Virus record (IMG/VR): IMGVR_UViG_3300044971_001687
Location: 1 to 28,235 of that record
Source: a virus
Lineage: Duplodnaviria; Caudoviricetes
Strand: one strand, 5' to 3'
Length of the DNA: 28,235 nucleotides
Program-made: the position numbers and the translations under genes
The notes under the pieces: generated by a model
What the model was told of the DNA's origin: nothing
The model's input: the letters and a program-made list of their open reading frames with translations, nothing else
The model's database searches: none
In this document: positions 2,896 through 20,860 of the stretch, piece by piece
Numbering within the stretch: the first letter of the stretch is position 1
Layout: each line of letters begins with the position of its first letter

Positions 2896-3541
2896 AAAAG
2901 TCTATAGGGATTGTATACAATGAAATCGGCGCGGGGGGATAAAACGGTCAGCAAACACAACAGCCAAAAAAAACAAGGCAACAACGGTCGATATAGAGGA
3001 AGTATCCTGCGAAGCAGTGTCCCCTCTCCTCTCAGGCAGCAAAGCGGTAGACTGAGAGAAGAGAGAGGGGGCAGTAGGAAGAGCGTAAGCGATGAGTACG
3101 CTACTCTCTATATAAGGGCTCATGTCCTCAAACATCGGTTTTCTTTCGCAAATCATACGGTTTTCAGGCACTTACGTAGCGTCCTTTTTTGCTGTTTTTT
3201 TCAACGCGAAAAAAAATCTGTTGCGCAATTGCGCAAAGTGTCGTGCGAAAGTGGTGCAAAATCTCTGTAGAACGGCATGGTGCAATGCTTGTGAACTTTG
3301 CGAACTTTCTTGCACGATTGTTGTGCGAGCCATGCATCGTTGAACATGAACAACTTACAAAGGTCGTTTTTGGGCTGTTTTTTGGGATGTTTTTTGAGCT
3401 TTTGATTTTCTCGCGCAACAGTGCGCACGTCTCGCGCAAAATACTCTGTAGAAAACGCTTCACAAACTTGGCGAACTTTGCAAACATGAATCTGCGCGTT
3501 TTGCGCAACAGTAACAACCAACTAAAAAACAGCAACTTACA
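2896..3541. promoter_or_regulatory. Non-coding repeat/palindrome-rich region, candidate replication origin and divergent promoter region
   Basis: 9-bp tandem GCGAACTTT-like units, palindromes at 2910-2921 and 3221-3236, phased T-tracts, long imperfect hairpin 3005-3079; lies downstream of the primase-helicase. Confidence 0.55.
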
Positions 3542-3862
3542 ATGAGAGCAGAATACTACCGTGAATGGCGTGCAAAAAAGCGTGCGAAGGCCGCTGAAAC
3601 CACTACTGAGGCTGACCACATGAAAGCGGATTTGAAGGCTGCGCTCGAAGCGAACACAGCCATTCAAAAGACGCTTGCGAGTCGGGATGAGACTATTCGT
3701 CATCTGGAGAAGATGGTCGAGCGGCTCTCGGCAGACCAATCCGCTCGGCTTGAGCGAATCGAGACCGCATTGCAGGCAATGCTGGCGGTTCCTCTGGCTC
3801 ATCCAACTCCTCATCCAGCTCCTCAGCCATCCCAGCCTGCGCCCCCTTGGATGAAAAGGTAG
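3542..3862 (+). CDS. Hypothetical protein, 106 aa: basic N-terminus, coiled coil, Pro-rich tail
   Basis: A/C-rich leader before ATG; EYYREWRAKKRAK, clear heptads, ends PAPPWMKR; antisense overlap with the primase-helicase 3' end. Confidence 0.7.
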   Translation: MRAEYYREWRAKKRAKAAETTTEADHMKADLKAALEANTAIQKTLASRDETIRHLEKMVERLSADQSARLERIETALQAMLAVPLAHPTPHPAPQPSQPAPPWMKR

Positions 3863-6200
3863 CCCATGCCGCTTGACCGGCCTTGCCGACGCAGGTGCCG
3901 GTCTCTGGATCGAAGGCGTACTCGTTCCAATCGGGAACAGACGCATACGCACCTGCTTGGATAGCCGCACCGGTCTCATCCGAAGCCAATAGCCCCCCAG
4001 GCACATCGAGGTAGCTCTTCGCCTTGCTGCCCTTGACCGCACAGGAGACGATGAGCTCCTTCTGTAAGCCCTCCTCGATGAGGTGCCCGAACTCGCTCGC
4101 GCCAACTGCACGCAGCACCGGTGGGAGTTCTGAGCGGCGCTTGTAGAGTCCGTTGGCTGCGTTCTTGTTCCCCAGCGTGTACGGGTGCAGATTGCCAGCA
4201 GCTTCCCTGACGGCCAGAACCAGCCATGCAAGGCGCTCGGTCACGTTGATGGCGCTGTACACATCCACCTTGGTGACGTCCTGAAGAAGGCCGTTGCCAT
4301 CCCGTAGCAGCGTGCGCTCGCCGCGCATGAGGCCCGAGATGTTCGCCTTCAGCACACCGAACCGGTAGCAAGAGTCCACCCGTGGGGCGAGGCCCATTCC
4401 CTTCATGCGGCGCTCGTAATCGGTCGCGTGCCAGAACCCCAGATTGATTCGGAAGTACGACGGTATGGCGCTGCTCCCACGGATCGAGTTCTTCATGTCC
4501 TTGAGCGTGCGGATGGGCTCGGCCCCAGGCTTTCGGATGTGGTGCGTTATCATAAGCGCCGCCCGAAGTTCCCCGCACACGCGCCCTGCCTCGCGCATCA
4601 TTTCCGCAACAGCCAGCGCGTTGTTCTCATCCCCGTGGGAGACCGCGTTGAAGGTATCCACGCATACCAAGCACAGGTCTGGCACTCGCTTGAGCTCGGT
4701 TATGACCGCCTCCCACTTTGAGGAGGCTACCGGTGCTCCGCTCCTCGGATCGCGCTCAACGAGCGGGAACGCCCCGCCAACCGCCGATAGCGGTATGACG
4801 ACAAGCCGACGACCTGCCTTCGCGATGAGCCCACCTTGATCAATCTCCAAGATGCGCCGGTGCATCTCGGTCTGACTGTCCTCGCACAAGAGCAGAACAG
4901 CGGTGCCGCCGTTGGTGATTCGCTGCCCACACCAGTCCAAATCCCCGCCAAACTCGGGGTAAGCGGCCACTTTCAACGCTAAGTCAGCGATAAGACCGGT
5001 CTTCCCCGCCCCGCCCTCGGCGATAAACAGGTGCGGCTCGCCTTTCACAACGAGCGATTCAACGAGGTAGGTGTGCTCGGGCTTGGGCCATTTTATCCAC
5101 CGGTGCGCTTCCCATGCTGAGAACCATGACTCCGCCGGTGTGCTCTGCGGGAGCTGACGCACGGGAGCTGGGGCCGGTGCCTGTGCCGGTGCCTCTGGCT
5201 TGCCGTTGCGCCGAATGTCCGCATTGACGAGACCCTGCCACTCCGAAGCAAATCGTGCATCTGTCCACGCGGGGTGCATCCGTTGCAGCATCCAGCCCCG
5301 TGTTTGCTCGCGTGCCTCGTCCATCGTGATGACGCCGCGCCGAACCATCCCTAGATTCGCGCCGGCAACCGAGTTGAACGCATCCCACCGCGTCTCGCCT
5401 CCTGCGCCCCCCTCGAACACATCACGCTGGTACGCGGGCTCCTTGGGCAACACGTTCCCGCTGCTCGCCCCGAACAGCCCGGGCTCTGGTGCTACTGCGC
5501 CTGCCGGCAGCAGCGTGCGCAGACGCTCGCCGAGTGCCCCTGCGTTGTACACGGCCTCGGACTGCCACTCGATTGTGGCCTGCACCGGTTTGCCTTGTTT
5601 CGCGTGGACACTGCCTGCGAGTCGGATTGGCTGGTGAGCGCGTCCGTACGGGTTTGATTCAACACCGAGTCCCATGGCGGAGTCGCCGCCTGAAACCTTG
5701 GCCAGAGCGTCTCGCATACGGATGGCCTGCTCAACCGGTACTTCCTCATCCAGACTGTACCAGACGTGCCGCTTCGGCGTGCCCTCGTCGGTCGTCCCGC
5801 CTGAACACACCACAAGCGAGGGCTCACCCAACTGCTCGGTGAGCTCGCGCATCTTGGCGTCGGTGTCCCCCGCATCGAGGTCTGCGACGAGCGAGCGCAT
5901 CCGCGCTACGTTGGCGCTTGTGGCGCGACGGTCGCTCAAGATGCCTGGGACAACGAATGTCGCCACATTGTACTGCGCCCACCGCTCGGTGGCCGACAAC
6001 ACAGGCGTGAAGCCTTCCGTGGCGGGTTCCACGAAGATATCCTCGCGGAAGACTCCCTCTTGGTCAGTTCCCTTTTCTCCGATACCGCGAACGCAGATGA
6101 ACTCGTTCTCTTTCCAATCTCTCTCGCCGAAAATGAGGCGAAGGTGCTCTTGGGCTTGGCGTAGGTCGACCAAGCCGCGACGATCTGTCAGTGGCTGCAT
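3693..6200 (-). CDS. Primase-helicase: N-terminal RepB-like AEP primase, C-terminal RecA-fold (AAA_25/RepA-like) helicase
   Basis: LVADLD, PSLVVCSGG, HVWY, IRLAGS primase motifs; Walker A AEGGAGKT, Walker B LVCVDT, ITHHIRK, RGSSAI. Confidence 0.9.
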   Translation of the reverse strand: MQPLTDRRGLVDLRQAQEHLRLIFGERDWKENEFICVRGIGEKGTDQEGVFREDIFVEPATEGFTPVLSATERWAQYNVATFVVPGILSDRRATSANVARMRSLVADLDAGDTDAKMRELTEQLGEPSLVVCSGGTTDEGTPKRHVWYSLDEEVPVEQAIRMRDALAKVSGGDSAMGLGVESNPYGRAHQPIRLAGSVHAKQGKPVQATIEWQSEAVYNAGALGERLRTLLPAGAVAPEPGLFGASSGNVLPKEPAYQRDVFEGGAGGETRWDAFNSVAGANLGMVRRGVITMDEAREQTRGWMLQRMHPAWTDARFASEWQGLVNADIRRNGKPEAPAQAPAPAPVRQLPQSTPAESWFSAWEAHRWIKWPKPEHTYLVESLVVKGEPHLFIAEGGAGKTGLIADLALKVAAYPEFGGDLDWCGQRITNGGTAVLLLCEDSQTEMHRRILEIDQGGLIAKAGRRLVVIPLSAVGGAFPLVERDPRSGAPVASSKWEAVITELKRVPDLCLVCVDTFNAVSHGDENNALAVAEMMREAGRVCGELRAALMITHHIRKPGAEPIRTLKDMKNSIRGSSAIPSYFRINLGFWHATDYERRMKGMGLAPRVDSCYRFGVLKANISGLMRGERTLLRDGNGLLQDVTKVDVYSAINVTERLAWLVLAVREAAGNLHPYTLGNKNAANGLYKRRSELPPVLRAVGASEFGHLIEEGLQKELIVSCAVKGSKAKSYLDVPGGLLASDETGAAIQAGAYASVPDWNEYAFDPETGTCVGKAGQAAWATFSSKGAQAGMAEELDEELDEPEEPPALPAMRSRFAQAERIGLPRAARPSSPDDE

Positions 6201-7677: not shown

Positions 7678-8006
7678 CCCTGCACCTCCTTCGGCAGCTC
7701 CGGCAGCGGCATCCAGTGGGTTGGCAGGTAGCCTCTCCACACCCCAAACTGGTCGATGCAAGAAACACTCAGATCCATCCACTCGCAGATATGCACTAGC
7801 ACCATCTTGTTCGCTGGAGGATGAGCTTCGCTGACCGGAATCCAGCGTTGTTGCTGTGCGATCCTGTTCAGTTCATGGCGTACAGCCAGCCTTCTGCGAG
7901 CCTCATCTATCAGAGCGCGATGGTTGTGATGCATCTCCAATGAAATGTGCATCAACATTCCTGCAATCATGCTGTCTGGCATGAACATTAAATCATTTTC
8001 GCTCAT
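7674..8006 (-). CDS. DUF551-like protein
   Basis: WIPVSE..P....VLV and THWMPLPE.P motifs. Confidence 0.85.
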   Translation of the reverse strand: MSENDLMFMPDSMIAGMLMHISLEMHHNHRALIDEARRRLAVRHELNRIAQQQRWIPVSEAHPPANKMVLVHICEWMDLSVSCIDQFGVWRGYLPTHWMPLPELPKEVQG

Positions 8007-8224
8007 CCCTGCACCTCCTTCTCAATGCTCTTGTAATGGTACATATTCAGTATCCGCATTAGGTCATCTGCGTTTATAATTTTTCTCTCAAATAGAACCT
8101 CAAGCAGTTCGGCTATTATGGTGTGCGTATCCTCATGCCAATCGCCATACGCAAGCGCAAGTCTAGCAATGGACGCATACTTGAAGCGTTCCCCATAGTT
8201 GCTGGTTACTACAACCGCGCTCAT
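8003..8224 (-). CDS. Hypothetical protein, 73 aa
   Basis: Start MSAVVV with GGAGG RBS and ATGA coupling; AT-richer than flanks. Confidence 0.7.
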   Translation of the reverse strand: MSAVVVTSNYGERFKYASIARLALAYGDWHEDTHTIIAELLEVLFERKIINADDLMRILNMYHYKSIEKEVQG

Positions 8225-8373
8225 TTCGTCTCCTCCTTCTCGCATTCTGGGCACTTGAGCATTTCGCTCACCTCGTTCCACTCCATCATCGCCCCGCAAC
8301 GGCAGTCTGGAGGTTCCGGTTGGTCGGACGGATCGTTCGACAACCACCCATCGTACCAGCTTGGCAGGTTCAT
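8221..8373 (-). CDS. Small zinc-ribbon protein, 50 aa (not in ORF track)
   Basis: Hand translation MNLPSWYDGWLSNDPSDQPEPPDCRCGAMMEWNEVSEMLKCPECEKEETK; ATGA-coupled at both ends. Confidence 0.75.
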   Translation of the reverse strand: MNLPSWYDGWLSNDPSDQPEPPDCRCGAMMEWNEVSEMLKCPECEKEETK

Positions 8374-8516
8374 TTGCTCTCCTTTCTGAGGCGCATGATT
8401 TCGGCCTCGATGCGTTTGAATGTCGCCTCAAACGCACGCCGGTTTGGGTGCGACTGAAGCAGCGTCTCCGTCAGTGCCAGAAGCTCAGTGGCTTCTTGTT
8501 CTAGTCTGTTTTTCAT
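8370..8516 (-). CDS. Hypothetical helical protein, 48 aa
   Basis: MKNRLEQEAT start, ATGA-coupled at both ends, A/C-rich leader. Confidence 0.7.
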   Translation of the reverse strand: MKNRLEQEATELLALTETLLQSHPNRRAFEATFKRIEAEIMRLRKESK

Positions 8517-9394
8517 TTTGTTGTTGTTGTTGCAGTTGAAATTTCGCATTGAATATGCCATGCAGCATTGTTTAGTTCTTTGATTTTATCAGCTTCAATT
8601 TCGCTTTTGTGAGCTCTCCATAAATAAAGAATTGCAAGTGACTTACTGCATGGCTTTTCAATCATTAAATATTTTGATATTGCCACGATATCATACTTAA
8701 GATTCTGTATATTGTTGCTCTGGATACGGAGAATAATTTCGCTAATTTCGTTTGGGATACCCCATTCATTGCAAGATTTCTGATCTCTTGAACTTGAGCA
8801 TCCGAAAGTTTTGCCATCGGATTTTGTCGCCCATGATAAGATGTTCCGTGAACCCATTTCCTGCGACAGTTCTCCAGATGAGTTTCCCACTTCAGATTCT
8901 CCAACCGGTTGTCTTCTCGATTGCCGTTCAAATGCGATGCATTGCATCCACTCGGACATGGCCCTACGAATGTCTCCAGTACCATTCGATGCACATACAG
9001 TAATTGCCTCGGAGATGAGAACATACACGTCATGTATCCACTCTTTATCTTCACTGGATTTCTTATTCTTCCATTCGAAACGCGTCTTATCTGACCAAAA
9101 ATTGATACCTCGTATTCCGGCTTTGATGGATAAAGTTTCCACATATCTGGAGATGTACCACAAAGCCTTCTTTAAATCAAGTGTTGGATTTTCGTGCTTT
9201 ATTTGATTCCTGAAAACGTACTTCACGGCATTCCCCAAAGGAAAAACCATGTTTTCTGCAATTTCGATACACTCTACACCACTTGGGTGCTGCTTGTAGT
9301 GCTGCGGCTCGACGGCGCTGGTCGTCGAGGACGGGTTGGATGATTTCGCGCCACAGTTTTGAGTACATACTGTCTCTTTCGGTTGGTTTTCCAT
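8513..9394 (-). CDS. DUF3310 (SaV / T7 gp1.7-like) protein with an internal dual-coded insert, 293 aa
   Basis: P.HY....SGVECIE....F.LGNAVKY..R...K......DLKKALWY; second degenerate copy YLWRAHK...ELNNAAWHI..EI at the C-terminus; start MENQ 6 nt after the helicase stop. Confidence 0.8.
   Translation of the reverse strand: MENQPKETVCTQNCGAKSSNPSSTTSAVEPQHYKQHPSGVECIEIAENMVFPLGNAVKYVFRNQIKHENPTLDLKKALWYISRYVETLSIKAGIRGINFWSDKTRFEWKNKKSSEDKEWIHDVYVLISEAITVCASNGTGDIRRAMSEWMQCIAFERQSRRQPVGESEVGNSSGELSQEMGSRNILSWATKSDGKTFGCSSSRDQKSCNEWGIPNEISEIILRIQSNNIQNLKYDIVAISKYLMIEKPCSKSLAILYLWRAHKSEIEADKIKELNNAAWHIQCEISTATTTTK
8665..9144 (-). CDS. NUMOD4-HNH homing endonuclease with C-terminal HTH, nested in the DUF3310 gene
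   Basis: WK......YEVS..G.IR, VHRMV...F, HLNGNREDNRLENL.W....EN, AKLS...V.EIR, SQTKLAKLFSVSRATI. Confidence 0.92.
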   Translation of the reverse strand: MWKLYPSKPEYEVSIFGQIRRVSNGRIRNPVKIKSGYMTCMFSSPRQLLYVHRMVLETFVGPCPSGCNASHLNGNREDNRLENLKWETHLENCRRKWVHGTSYHGRQNPMAKLSDAQVQEIRNLAMNGVSQTKLAKLFSVSRATIYRILSMISWQYQNI

Positions 9395-9399
9395 GTTCT

Positions 9400-11043
9400 T
9401 TAGCCGAGAATTGCTTTTTTTATTCGGGACTCGTTGAAACGCCATGTCAGCAGGCAGCTCGCACGATACCGAGACATCCCAAACATGGGAACGTCCGCCA
9501 TGTGCTTGAGTTGCGCGTCGGTGGGTGGCAGCTTGATCCAACTCTTGGTCTTGCGCGAGTTTGCACGATCTCCGTTGGATCGCAGATAATCGTCCGCTTG
9601 AGCGAGCGCAAGTTCCTTGGAGTTTGTGCGGGTAATGACGGTAACCGCGCCTCCGGTGACTCCGCCAATGGCGTTATACACCTCGCCAAGCCTGATGACC
9701 GCGCCCCACGCAGTGAGCGCGTTCGCCATGCGCACGGCGTCCCCGTACATCGACTCCCACCGGAACGGAGACATCTCGATGATTTGCATCTCAGACATCT
9801 CGAAGGACTCGATTGTCTCGATGCCGTTGACTCGAACCGGGAAGACGTAGCCGCACACGGGGCAGTTACTGACAGCAGCTGGCACTTGAATGCCGCACTC
9901 AGGGCACTTCTTCATCGGCGCTTCACCGGTCTCGCTCTGGCGAACAAACAGCCGGTCTCCCGCGTCGATGTCACCGTGCGTGAGCAGTGAGGCGCCAAAG
10001 TCCAAGATGATGCAGTCGCTCTTAATCACCCCAGGGTAGCGTTTGGCATCAATGCACGGTCTCAGCCCTCGCCCGATCATCTGAATCATCGTTGACTTCT
10101 GACTGCACGGTCGCACCAGCACAACGCACCCCACACGCTGGCAGTCCCACCCCTCGGTCAGCTTCATCACGTTGAGCAGCACCTTGATTTTGCCTTGGTC
10201 AAAGCGCCGAAGAACCGTCGCGTTGTCGTCGTCCGACATTTCGGAGTGGACGGCCTCAGCCGAGATGCCTTCTTCGCGGAACGCCTCAGCCAAGTGCTGG
10301 GCGTGTTGGATGGTCGAGCAGAACACCACGGTCGAGCGGTCGGACGCCTTCTCGCGCCAGTGCCGCAGAATCTCCGAGTGAACCGCCCTCTTGTCCATGA
10401 TGGCCTCGACTTCACCCATGTCGAACTCTGCACCGGTCTTCTGCACGCTCTGGAGCTGGTCGTTGAGGCCGATGTCCATGCGGAACGCACGCGGCGGAAC
10501 AAGGTTCCCCGCAGCGATGAGTTCACCCACGGTGATTTTGTCGGCGACGTTGTTGAACACCGCCGTGAGCGCCTGTTTGTCGCCGCGCTCCGGTGTCGCG
10601 GTAAGCCCCAAAATAACGCCATCTGGAGAGCGTTCGCGAAACGCCTGCACGATGTTCATGTAGCTTTCAGCCGCTATGTGATGGCACTCATCACAGAACA
10701 GCGCCGACATCCCACTCGGCATCGTTGCCAAGTTCGCCGGCCTGCATAGCGTCTGTACCATGGCGAAGGTCGCCCCCGGCGACCACGCTTTGCGCTCTGC
10801 ATTGAACACATCCACCTTCGCGCCGGCGTTGTACCGCTTGAAGGTCTCCTTGTTCTGGGTAACAAGCTCGTCGCGGTGTTGAATGACGAGCACCGGTGCC
10901 TCTTTCACAAACGGCGCAAGGATTGCGCTGCCCATGACCGTCTTACCTGCGCCTGTTGGCGCAATGCCTAAAGTGTTGCCGCACTTTCCGAGTGCGTCGA
11001 TACAGGCGTCAACGAACTGCGCCTGCCTTGGTCGTAAAATCAT
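9400..11043 (-). CDS. Superfamily 2 DExH helicase (RadD/YejH-like) with zinc finger
   Basis: LRPRQ, APTGAGKT, DECHH, LTATPER, LTEGWD, QMIGRGLR, CPEC...CPVC; start MILRPRQ. Confidence 0.93.
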   Translation of the reverse strand: MILRPRQAQFVDACIDALGKCGNTLGIAPTGAGKTVMGSAILAPFVKEAPVLVIQHRDELVTQNKETFKRYNAGAKVDVFNAERKAWSPGATFAMVQTLCRPANLATMPSGMSALFCDECHHIAAESYMNIVQAFRERSPDGVILGLTATPERGDKQALTAVFNNVADKITVGELIAAGNLVPPRAFRMDIGLNDQLQSVQKTGAEFDMGEVEAIMDKRAVHSEILRHWREKASDRSTVVFCSTIQHAQHLAEAFREEGISAEAVHSEMSDDDNATVLRRFDQGKIKVLLNVMKLTEGWDCQRVGCVVLVRPCSQKSTMIQMIGRGLRPCIDAKRYPGVIKSDCIILDFGASLLTHGDIDAGDRLFVRQSETGEAPMKKCPECGIQVPAAVSNCPVCGYVFPVRVNGIETIESFEMSEMQIIEMSPFRWESMYGDAVRMANALTAWGAVIRLGEVYNAIGGVTGGAVTVITRTNSKELALAQADDYLRSNGDRANSRKTKSWIKLPPTDAQLKHMADVPMFGMSRYRASCLLTWRFNESRIKKAILG

Positions 11044-11137
11044 ATGTGCCTTTGTTTCACTGACGCAAAAATGAAAAAGCGTCGTTGCAGGATCTCCCTG
11101 CACACCATGCGGCTAGATTTGCCGCTGGTTTTAACCC

Positions 11138-18186: not shown

Positions 18187-19692
18187 TTACTTCTGTTTGA
18201 ATTCAAATGTCACTCCGCCGCGACTGCCTTGAGTCCAGCCTGCGCCAGCACCAGTTGGCACCGGCGGTGGTACGGACTTGTTCTTGAGTTGTTCTTGGCG
18301 CGTCTGTGGCGCTTTGCTTCCAAGTACAGACTCAACTGGCGCATTTGGAAGCGAGAAGATGTTTTGAATATCTAGGCCACGCCTTTCAGCAATAGCTTTG
18401 TTACTTTCTAGATATTTATTGTATTCTTTTTCAGATTGCTGCATCCGCCTTTCTGACATCCGAATCAAGTCGTCCCTGTCTTTCTCGGAAAGCTTTCCTC
18501 CTTCGTTTACTTTAGCAACAAGCGATCTGAATGCGGCTGGAATCGTCCCACCGGTAACCATTCCTGCTTCAGTCACGCTGACCGTTGACGTTGGGTCATT
18601 GATTTTGACAGCCGCAACAATTGCTGACGCATCACCAGGGATGCTCTTAAGTTCCTTTGCCAACTGAACCGCTGTGACGAGGTCTCTTCTTGCAATATAA
18701 TTTCTAACAAAAGGTTCAGCCTCAAAGTTTTCTTTCATCTGAATTTCTAGCGAAGCTTTCTTCTCTGGGTCAAGCGCGCCAGATTTCTTGAAGTCTGCTT
18801 CTAAATCCTTAAGTCGAGCCTCTGCTTTCTTCAACGATGTCTCGGACTCGGTTTTGGCAACCTGCTCAGGAGCGCGTTCCTTGAGGAAGCCCAAAAAAGA
18901 ATCTGCTTTCTTTTGGTCTACTTTCAAAAGATTGCTGTAAGCAACATTTGCCCAGATTGCAGGAGGCGCTTCTTCTGGCAGTCTGTCTAAAGCTGTCTGA
19001 AGCTCTTTAGACATCCGTTGAGCAACCGGATTCGGGTCTTTTGCAAATGCAGAAATCTGGTCGTTTATCAACTTAAACGCTCCGATGTTGTCCCCTGACA
19101 TCCCAAACATCGCAGCGTCCTGCATGGTGTTCACAAGCCCATCACGGTACTTGTTTGGCATGGCTTTCAGGATGTTGTCATACCTTTCAGCCTCCTTTGA
19201 AGGCAGAAGCGCACTCAACTGCCCAATCTTTTGTACGGATTTTGGGTCTGGATCGTTTGGATCCATCTTGCTGGCAATCTGACCAAGACGGATTTGAGCT
19301 GCCGCAGTAGCAGCATCTAACTCTGCCTTGTTCAACTTCCCAATCACCGGCAAGAGCGCTTCTGTGCCAGCTTCTTCAGAGCTTACAAAGCTGTTGAACG
19401 CCTTTCCAACTTCTTGTTGCCTTGCCCTCTCAGCCTGAAGCGCCTGCAACTGCTGCTGGAATCCAAACTCTGCACGCCTTGCCGCCGCCGCGCTCTGTGC
19501 CATCTGCTGTTGTTGGCCTTGGATACCGAGTTGAGCGGCTTGAATCTGGAGCGGGGCCATCATCGCCGCTTGTTCCTGCTGGGCGCGAGACGCCTTAATC
19601 CCCTCAATAGCTGAGAGCCCTTGAATCAGATTACCTCCGAACAGACCTGGATTTGGAGGCTGAATTGGAATGTTGTAGTTGAAATCAGCCAT
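18187..19692 (-). CDS. DNA ejection/transfer protein (gp20-like position)
   Basis: Gln/Ala-rich helical protein; DP.S.V...E motif; start MADFNY. Confidence 0.65.
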   Translation of the reverse strand: MADFNYNIPIQPPNPGLFGGNLIQGLSAIEGIKASRAQQEQAAMMAPLQIQAAQLGIQGQQQQMAQSAAAARRAEFGFQQQLQALQAERARQQEVGKAFNSFVSSEEAGTEALLPVIGKLNKAELDAATAAAQIRLGQIASKMDPNDPDPKSVQKIGQLSALLPSKEAERYDNILKAMPNKYRDGLVNTMQDAAMFGMSGDNIGAFKLINDQISAFAKDPNPVAQRMSKELQTALDRLPEEAPPAIWANVAYSNLLKVDQKKADSFLGFLKERAPEQVAKTESETSLKKAEARLKDLEADFKKSGALDPEKKASLEIQMKENFEAEPFVRNYIARRDLVTAVQLAKELKSIPGDASAIVAAVKINDPTSTVSVTEAGMVTGGTIPAAFRSLVAKVNEGGKLSEKDRDDLIRMSERRMQQSEKEYNKYLESNKAIAERRGLDIQNIFSLPNAPVESVLGSKAPQTRQEQLKNKSVPPPVPTGAGAGWTQGSRGGVTFEFKQK

Positions 19693-19696
19693 AATT

Positions 19697-20860
19697 TTAC
19701 ACGTTGGTGGACATAAATCCAGACTGCGCCCCCTGTCCCATTGTCCAGTCGCCAGAACCGGCAAAGGATTCATAGCCGCCTCCGCCGCTGTCAAAGCCTC
19801 CACTTAACTGATTCAGTAGAGCGAAGTTTTGTAATCCGCTTCCAATTGCATTCGCCATACCAGTATATCCAGCAGCCCGAGCCGCTGCTGCTCCTTGAAT
19901 CCCAGCGGCCTGCGCTGCTCCTTGTGACGAGAGAAGACCAGCAATTGCATTTCCAGACTGGATGCCGCCAGCAGCTTGTCCTGCCGCAGACGCTTGACCC
20001 AAGTTAAGCATATTCTGCGCTGCTGCCTGTCCTACATTGGAGAGACCACCAAGACGTGCGTACTGCTGATCGATAAGCTGATTAAGAAGCTGCGGACGGT
20101 ACCGTGCGAGTGCGCTTTGAGTGCCATCAGAACCGCGCCGCCCGGTGGCTGACGCCGCTGCAAGAATCGCTTCCTCGCCCTGCTTGGCGAGTTCTTGGTA
20201 AAGCGGCCCCTGCTCAATCTGCTGGATAGCTTGACGTTGCTGTTCGATGCCAAGCTGTTCGTACTGCTTGTCCTCAAGAATCGGTTTAAATAGAGCCTGT
20301 TGCTGCGCGTATCCTTGGGCCTCAATGTTTCTGGCAGCAGCATTAGTCGATAAATCAAACTCAGCTAAAGCATCTTCTCCTTTGATTTTTTCTCTTTGTT
20401 TTTCTCTAGTTCTATAAAGCTCATCAATTTTCTCTTTTGTGATGTCAGCGAGTTGATTGTACTGCGGCGATTGTTGAATAGCGTAAAGGGCTCTTTGGCG
20501 CTCCTGCTCACCACCAAGACCGGCTAGACGTTGCATTTGCTGAATCGCTCCAGGGCCAGCGCCGATATATGGTTGTGTAAGCCCAGGCTGACCAGCATTG
20601 ATGTATGGCGAGAGAATCTCCCGCATTGCATCAAACTGTCTGCGTTGCTCATAAATAGCAGCGTCTTGACCTCGCAACTGAGCTGCCGCTGCTCTTTCTG
20701 AAGCAGCCTTTGCTGCGCTAGAAGCTTTCTTTTGTCCGTAAATACTTGCGCCAACACCACCAGCCGCAACCCCAGCGGCAATCGCTGCTGCCGTGCCTGC
20801 GCCTGCTAAAGCCGCTCCTCCTCCTACTGCAATTGCTGTTCCTACTGCTACAAATGCCAT
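19697..20860 (-). CDS. DNA ejection protein, P22 gp7-like
   Basis: Hydrophobic Gly/Ala N-terminus, EQRRQFD....L.PY..AG, QGEEAIL..ASATG. Confidence 0.8.
   Translation of the reverse strand: MAFVAVGTAIAVGGGAALAGAGTAAAIAAGVAAGGVGASIYGQKKASSAAKAASERAAAAQLRGQDAAIYEQRRQFDAMREILSPYINAGQPGLTQPYIGAGPGAIQQMQRLAGLGGEQERQRALYAIQQSPQYNQLADITKEKIDELYRTREKQREKIKGEDALAEFDLSTNAAARNIEAQGYAQQQALFKPILEDKQYEQLGIEQQRQAIQQIEQGPLYQELAKQGEEAILAAASATGRRGSDGTQSALARYRPQLLNQLIDQQYARLGGLSNVGQAAAQNMLNLGQASAAGQAAGGIQSGNAIAGLLSSQGAAQAAGIQGAAAARAAGYTGMANAIGSGLQNFALLNQLSGGFDSGGGGYESFAGSGDWTMGQGAQSGFMSTNV

Follow-up and report, generated by a model that had tools for sequence, protein, structure and literature searches.

Organization of the DUF3310 locus

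The window, meaning the whole stretch of DNA analysed here, is the 28-kb (28,235 nt) linear virus record IMGVR_UViG_3300044971_001687, in which Pfam domains identify P22-like structural genes and a replication module. Its minus strand carries a host ORF of 293 codons (8513..9394) in which DUF3310 is read through a nested HNH endonuclease gene into a second DUF3310-like module. The ATG of this ORF is the start used by the short empty alleles of the same gene. The first DUF3310 domain is complete (9152..9310, minus strand; host residues 29-81) and matches Pfam with an E value of 2.9e-9 and a score of 37.3 bits, against a cut-off of 24. A phenylalanine replaces the usual tryptophan of its KYx[W/F]R motif. 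In PHROGs, the host DUF3310 falls under the SaV-like and "nucleotide kinase" annotations, and a sequence search of solved structures gave no match for DUF3310. T7 gp1.7 bears DUF3310, and the family is also labelled T7 gp1.7-like. A dTMP/dGMP kinase activity has been described for T7 gp1.7 (PMC11897194).

The nested gene (8665..9144, minus strand) has 159 codons, lies in the +1 frame of the host with its own ATG, and comprises NUMOD4 (residues 2-42), HNH_3 (50-92) and HTH_7 (112-150) domains. The initial annotation had placed a NUMOD4-HNH-HTH ORF of this length wholly inside a DUF3310 ORF of the same strand, with its ATG at the end of the DUF3310 domain. Both ORFs are present as described, and the position of the ATG is true of each nested HNH. 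The host frame over the HNH gene (8714..9118, minus strand; host residues 93-227) forms a stop-free linker whose residues are unconserved and predicted to be unfolded. It is followed by a second, degenerate three-helix DUF3310 core (8519..8710, minus strand; residues 229-292), the first ~15 codons of which overlap the 3' end of the HNH gene. The second DUF3310-like half that had been proposed from the letters alone was recovered by BLASTP against an empty allele (E 8e-6) and by PHROG 26005 (E 0.005). A TAATG at 8663..8667 (minus strand) combines the HNH stop with a host-frame ATG; it is unconserved in relatives and is a possible separate start of a 50-aa C-terminal piece in the window lineage.

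The host stop is coupled to the next gene by an ATGA at 8516-8513, as had been annotated. This next gene (8370..8516, minus strand) encodes 48 aa of no known family, and its arrangement is identical in filled and empty alleles. Upstream of the host ORF lies a DNA helicase gene (9400..11052, minus strand), whose last 550 nt were used as a flank marker. Within the host ORF, an AT-rich (40% GC) stretch with approximate edges at 8533..9284 (minus strand) behaves as a mobile cassette, which replaces the ~160-nt core of the empty alleles in this phage population. A promoter and terminator scan of 8300-9600 returned one promoter-like match on the plus strand (1.8 expected) and no terminator. In GenBank phages, the match is limited to the DUF3310 part in 147 records, and none spans 80% of the host protein.

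The host frame is kept free of stop codons

By hand, the initial annotation had counted about 42 HNH codons beginning with AA, AG or GA and about a quarter ending in T, from which roughly 10 host-frame stops were expected and none was seen. The recount gave 42 codons and 38 of 160, and the expectation was 8.5 stops under a within-gene synonymous shuffle and 10.0 under codon permutation, against zero observed. In the synonymous-shuffle check for stop depletion suggested by that annotation, neither shuffle null reached zero in any of 200,000 replicates; a null of uniform synonymous choice did so in 5 of 200,000. The third frame across the HNH gene contains 12 stops versus 9.8 expected. As a control, 34 blocks of 160 codons were taken from 14 other genes of the window, and none was stop-free in the same relative frame (range 2-14). 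One control block (window 18844-19323, from the minus-strand gene 18187-19803) has 6 shifted-frame stops versus 13.9 expected, with none of 300 shuffles as low; it is stop-depleted yet not open.

The same avoidance is seen in relatives of the element. Over 13 pooled nested-class loci, a T-ending codon precedes AA, AG or GA in 0 of 426 cases, compared with 396 of 1092 elsewhere, the loci being related so that p values overstate the difference. Over six free-standing sister loci, also related to one another, the corresponding counts are 82 of 234 and 190 of 509. The free-standing sisters serve as a natural control and show that it is nesting that imposes stop avoidance. By hand comparison, the sole variable HNH site among the filled loci, 8923, is silent in the HNH frame and alters a host residue, and its variant avoids the single base that would create a host-frame stop. 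The open host frame is real and not due to chance. That it arose by chance or from faulty assembly is vanishingly improbable given the shuffles, the presence of the allele in 14 further full-length viral contigs, and an open frame in all of nine or more distant lineages.

Nested, free-standing, fused and tandem relatives

The frame test was applied to 73 HNH-relative loci obtained from scans with HNH alignments. At 23 of these, six of which are the window's own allele, the HNH gene lies inside a DUF3310 gene in the same register, with no host-frame stop where 3-12 are expected. Ten loci have 7-17 stops, and there the HNH gene stands behind a closed DUF3310 gene of another subfamily or before an orphan 3' DUF3310 remnant. 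Among the other 40, just one GC-rich locus is free of stops (1.3 expected). An extra nested locus from genome contigs (L141) has none versus 6.6 expected. At least nine groups can be told apart among the nested HNHs: eight with pairwise identities of 40-76%, and L141. The frame openness in homologues that the initial annotation wanted checked holds in all the nested lineages, and needs amending for the free-standing sisters, with their 7-17 stops.

The free-standing sisters L073, L074, L077, L118, L120 and L121 lie directly behind a complete DUF3310 gene, joined by ATGA or short overlaps. Their HNH genes are found at about 1501-1970, in L120 at 236-703 and in L121 at 721-1185. Several of these loci carry a start-less 3' DUF3310 remnant after the HNH gene. 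L074 and L121 are free-standing yet in the same register, their host frame closing a few codons in. With sisters of this kind maintained behind DUF3310 genes that are closed, the nuclease clade as such does not depend on read-through.

A host-anchored search, with a DNA pattern built from host DNA alone, returned 28 loci. In all seven HPSG-subtype loci, an intact HNH is nested and the host frame is open. The other 21 (L222-L249) are long forms from different DUF3310 subfamilies: they have KYCFR and extended helical C termini, and no HNH in the +1 frame. In a protein library clustered at 50%, 12 of the best 150 of 8212 matches span the overlap uninterrupted (202-514 aa); most of these 12 are known as protein sequences, and for them a hidden HNH is presumed. 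Other forms occupy the linker position as well. HNH domains are fused there in frame in L165 (seen in DNA; fusion gene at 1201-2052) and in the proteins P0102, P0104 and P0019, with the second module after the HNH. P0140 has a short in-frame NUMOD4-like remnant at this position, and P0151 and P0061 are HNH-less tandem forms with short linkers. A database protein, P0002, comes from a single 1-kb contig and joins window 9394-8870 to 8841-8668, so that the host frame runs into the HTH end of the nuclease; its joint resembles a deletion of ~28 nt, either natural or an assembly error.

When 23 selected HNHs were placed in a tree, those associated with DUF3310, 17 in number, stood apart from the six others (SH-aLRT 98). 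The nested class as one clade was rejected (p-AU 0.013), whereas the free-standing class as a clade was not (0.11). Because the nested class is not one clade, the state changed at least once. A larger HNH tree is weak at its deep branches. The DUF3310 host family, the duplication architecture and the three states at one site appear to be new in this work.

The cassette replaces the core of empty alleles

Searching viral contigs with the host protein yielded 39 loci, comprising 15 filled alleles (one partial), 23 empty alleles and one cut short. The empty alleles encode 92-94 aa and have the start, stop and neighbours of the filled ones. In the filled allele, ~750 nt of 40% GC DNA (8533-9284) stand in place of an empty-gene core of 46-57% GC, and the replaced stretch runs from CACCC (His-Pro codons) to just before the final ACA repeat. 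In L112 and L209, a closely matched filled and empty pair, the edges lie at KY| and |KAVWY. When L069, L111 and L113 are aligned to empty loci by BLAST, the alignments are interrupted at these positions too. HNH-less alleles had been proposed as the means of mapping the insertion point, and they serve this purpose. The clean insertion expected from the initial annotation was only partly upheld: extra sequence is present relative to the empty alleles, but part of DUF3310 is replaced by a recoded copy and a second degenerate core is added. The element is a replacement composed of a recoded DUF3310 segment, then the HNH, then the second degenerate DUF3310 core.

Nucleotide diversity over the 14 full-length filled loci is 0.0005 in the cassette, versus 0.107 across the 550-nt upstream flank and 0.053 across 150 nt downstream; the flanks differ by 5-11% between loci. 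Filled and empty alleles are interleaved in the upstream-flank tree. A near-invariant cassette on diverse, interleaved flanks is the pattern of recent lateral spread, as homing predicts. The alternative is a sweep of an advantageous host allele, which would likewise leave the cassette with little diversity.

In the KYx[W/F]R motif, W is found in 78 of 80 sampled DUF3310 loci and in 52 of 53 short proteins, whereas nested loci have F in 13 of 14 and Y in one; L141, counted separately, is nested with W. Among the empty alleles of the window population, 21 of 23 have F (L018-L038, KYVFR), with 14 of 15 bases at that spot identical to the cassette. These KYVFR alleles might be cleavage-resistant. 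L141 is nested with W, however, and 21 of the 28 loci with KYCFR come from other long subfamilies that lack an HNH, so the F may instead accompany the long architecture. In the RNA-labelled runs X1 and X4, the commoner allele at window 8499-9398 swaps the whole 898-nt gene region for 308 other letters.

Selection on the two frames and the second module

Selection was compared between the HNH frame and the host frame in two clades of relatives. In the HNH frame, pN/pS is about 0.1-0.4, with pS reaching 0.55-0.8 in distant pairs (synonymous saturation). In the overlap, the host frame has pN equal to or above pS in distant pairs, so its openness is kept and not its sequence.

The part behind the HNH aligns by profile with DUF3310 as a degenerate three-helix core (55 columns, probability 99.6), the query alignment having included HNH-less and in-frame forms. 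Four disjoint pairs were compared at the codons behind the HNH stop that belong to the cassette alone: about 59 synonymous sites carry 18 changes, and about 172 non-synonymous sites carry 6. The second module is under purifying selection. As an edge lies at KAVWY, its last helix can come from the recipient. In 4 of 14 loci, the interval from -34 to +40 nt around the HNH stop contains no host-frame start, and the starts in the other loci are scattered and unshared. In the absence of a shared start, the simplest reading is that the second module is made by read-through.

It might instead be argued that the first DUF3310 domain works alone, with the frame kept open for coupling to the next gene, to avoid polarity or to damp HNH initiation, and with a C-terminal module that is dispensable or has its own start. 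The complete domain before the HNH, the ATGA coupling and TAATG overlap of the window, and the free-standing sisters, in which DUF3310 does end before the HNH, are all compatible with this. We nevertheless consider it fairly unlikely. The cassette-only codons of the C-terminal module are under purifying selection and the module has no conserved start; several nested-class genes, L072, L110 and L117, lack coupling to their downstream neighbour; and translation ending at a stop just within the HNH would be enough to cover the HNH start.

AlphaFold2, run with a 34-sequence alignment, gave pLDDT values of 80-96 for residues 41-90, mostly below 50 for 93-227 and 74-97 for 231-290. The host product is thus predicted to consist of two folded helical modules joined by an unfolded linker of ~135 residues. 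The pTM of 0.48 with ~45% of residues unfolded is an arithmetic hint only that the modules are placed together. An HNH-less tandem form has an all-helical AlphaFold model (mean pLDDT 81.5) that matches SaV-like and "nucleotide kinase" viral models; the best Z score in a structure search with this form was 5.8, which is uninformative for helices.

The nested endonuclease and its start

The closest solved relative of the nested HNH is I-HmuI (PDB 1u3e; E 5e-10 over residues 3-120), with which it shares the NUMOD4 and HNH architecture. The positions of I-HmuI His75, Asn83 and Asn96 are kept, and the HNH motif residues His71, Asn79-equivalent, Asn83 and Asn92 are kept as well. In contrast to I-HmuI, the DUF3310 HNH is not located in a group I intron, has a C-terminal HTH_7-like domain, and has Ser at the Asp74 position, as do all 14 nested-class HNHs checked. 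In I-HmuI-type enzymes, these His, Asn and Asp74 positions belong to the active site. Activity of the HNH is not guaranteed, given this Ser.

The ribosome-binding signal of the HNH gene is weak in the window (-2.8 kcal/mol, versus -3.5 to -12.3 in 13 relatives), and most relatives have a purine-rich, Shine-Dalgarno-like run 3-7 nt before the HNH ATG. Upstream of the ATG, the HNH frame stays open for just 1-23 codons, and the loci have no slippery site in common; this makes low-level internal initiation more likely than frameshifting. A DUF3310-HNH frameshift fusion was rejected, as no conserved slippery site was found. An mRNA hairpin around the HNH ATG (9119..9167, minus strand; -17.2 kcal/mol, z -1.9) is weak: 12 of 200 shuffles are equally stable, so that it is not significant in the window, and relatives share no structure there. 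In T4-like phages, RNA hairpins are known to hide the ribosome-binding sites of endonucleases (PMC2988022).

These features bear on whether the HNH still homes. It could be inactive, domesticated or expressed as a frameshift fusion, the long DUF3310 allele spreading because it is advantageous; the Ser at the Asp74 position, the weak ribosome-binding site in the window, the existence of in-frame fusions and the joint of the host frame to the HTH part in P0002, known from its single 1-kb contig, would all fit. We regard a non-homing HNH as unlikely, because the HNH frame is under purifying selection with its His and Asn motifs kept, the cassette has sharp edges that lie at the same codons in different loci, most relatives have the Shine-Dalgarno-like run before the ATG, and a shift would have to fall within 1-23 codons lacking a conserved slippery site.

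Splicing, intein and bypass

Another way to reconcile the two genes is that an unrecognised intron or a ribosomal bypass takes the HNH region out of the host product. The resemblance of the HNH to the intron-encoded I-HmuI and the lack of protein conservation in the host-frame overlap speak for this. The initial annotation had noted no flanking room for a group I intron and no intein termini, in agreement with our searches: Rfam gave no match at E<=5 over 8000-10000, and Pfam found no intein domain in the host frame of the window or of four relatives. Coding DUF3310 sequence abuts both HNH ends and synonymous saturation extends across the HNH, leaving no room for the RNA core of a group I intron. 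Neither junction structure nor long-range pairing rose above shuffles (z -0.9 to 1.0).

RNA was checked in assembled contigs only, from eight runs of which six are labelled RNA (one by guess). In two RNA-labelled runs, contigs cross the 5' junction unjoined; the 3' junction falls outside the coverage of the RNA-labelled contigs. The joints seen in the eight runs are whole-allele replacements only (e.g. 8532/9285), and none drops just the HNH, which speaks weakly against splicing. Gene 60-type bypass involves a stop or hungry codon after the take-off codon, stops in the skipped part and a conserved stem-loop (10.1101/2022.08.31.505936). At the DUF3310 locus there is no stop after a take-off codon and no conserved slippery site or junction structure, which speaks against the skipping by recoding that had been offered as one outcome. 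Moreover, any removal of the HNH region from the product would make host-frame stop avoidance unnecessary. Removal by an intron or bypass is thus very unlikely. The other outcome offered, a tolerated linker, agrees with an overlap that is open and unconserved, with the unfolded linker of the AlphaFold model and with the pattern of a mobile cassette.

A probable dual-coding cassette and its known counterparts

We consider it likely, from sequence comparisons, that the element is a mobile dual-coding cassette, with an internally initiated HNH that homes by replacement and a host frame read from end to end with the overlap as a tolerated loop. Translation of the HNH would begin at an internal ATG in the +1 frame of the DUF3310 gene, and the nuclease would drive homing into empty DUF3310 alleles. 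It may cut in or near the stretch replaced by the cassette, between the KY and KAxWY codons, and repair could then use two homology arms, the 5' part of DUF3310 that the alleles share and KAxWYIxREI at the 3' end. The host frame would be translated whole and unspliced, giving two helical DUF3310 modules joined by a loop of ~135 residues, in which the second module probably packs against the first domain to form a pseudo-dimer within one chain. Host-frame stops would have been removed by selection because the module behind the HNH must be made in the same chain.

A wider reading, which we put forward only as a possibility and with some doubt, is that the DUF3310 site records a splice-free homing life cycle. 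One HNH clade would switch between nested, in-frame and free-standing forms, the HNH-less tandems would be scars, and the cassette would have rebuilt the host as a pseudo-dimer, locking itself in. If so, homing would have created a new host-protein architecture, and the host protein would depend on reading through the gene of its parasite.

Among known systems, the dual-coding cassette has its closest counterpart in the ShiLan domain and the Pacc40 gp60 insertion, hidden out-of-frame HNHs in mycobacteriophage DNA methylases that were described on computational evidence (PMC11855218). Arsenault, Gosselin and Gogarten (2025) gave the first description of the ShiLan lifestyle (PMC11855218), which the DUF3310 element shares. 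Extra sequence, an open host frame, a complete same-strand HNH ORF, a lack of intron or intein signatures and a disjunct distribution, by which ShiLan-type elements are recognised, were all found here. The initial annotation had seen a selfish nuclease that neutralises its insertion by dual coding; a mobile HNH cassette with no signs of splicing agrees with this, but the phenomenon itself is not novel, having been published for phage methylases (PMC11855218). The two elements differ in several respects. The ShiLan host is a DNA methylase and its nuclease an HNH with zinc fingers in the "third frame", whereas here the host is DUF3310 and the nuclease an I-HmuI-like NUMOD4-HNH-HTH protein in the +1 frame. 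ShiLan inserts between two codons, whereas the present cassette takes the place of a host segment and brings with it an entire second, degenerate domain core. Because of its DUF3310 host, its NUMOD4-HNH-HTH nuclease and this replacement with duplication, the element is best described as ShiLan-like and not as a ShiLan domain. Beyond the ShiLan work, stop avoidance was tested here against nulls and free-standing sisters, and in-frame and free-standing forms were found at the same gene. In the titles and abstract openings of the literature on DUF3310 and HNH, no HNH nested in DUF3310 was found; the repository of the ShiLan paper could hold further hosts.

Out-of-frame endonucleases have also been described in inteins, in reports on a cyanobacterial dnaX intein (10.64898/2026.09.14.751524) and on actinophages (10.1101/2025.01.02.630785). 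In these, purifying selection acts on the nuclease while the outer frame drifts, as in the DUF3310 element. An intein insert is removed by protein splicing, whereas no Hint domain was found in the DUF3310 element, whose loop would stay in the protein. The actinophage paper also proposes that out-of-frame ORFs can move in frame by indels of 1-2 nt (10.1101/2025.01.02.630785). MobA in T4-like gene 39/60 (10.1101/2022.08.31.505936) and mobE in Aeh1 nrdA (PMC2988022) are HNH cassettes. In both, the target stretch is deleted and a diverged homologous replacement is supplied, with extensions on both sides of the nuclease ORF, as is observed here. MobA and mobE split their host into two ORFs, gene 60 also needing bypass, whereas the DUF3310 host remains one open frame.

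The DUF3310 element extends splice-free selfish elements from methylases to a small, soluble and widespread phage protein. Because empty and filled alleles can be paired and the cassette edges are mapped, the locus lends itself to direct tests of read-through, internal initiation and homing. The occurrence of in-frame, out-of-frame and free-standing forms at one gene bears on how endonucleases enter proteins without, or before, a splicing device. As gene callers report only the outer ORF, nested nucleases are missed and "DUF3310 hypothetical proteins" of 250-310 aa are misread.

Two further observations concern the window outside this locus. A minus-strand frame of 355 codons at 3164-4231, which overlaps the last 540 nt of the primase-helicase gene and has no Pfam or PHROG match, is probably not a gene. 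A second, weakly HNH-like ORF (PHROG 15471, E 8.5e-5) is located at 1948-2430, beside RusA and a Mom-family gene.
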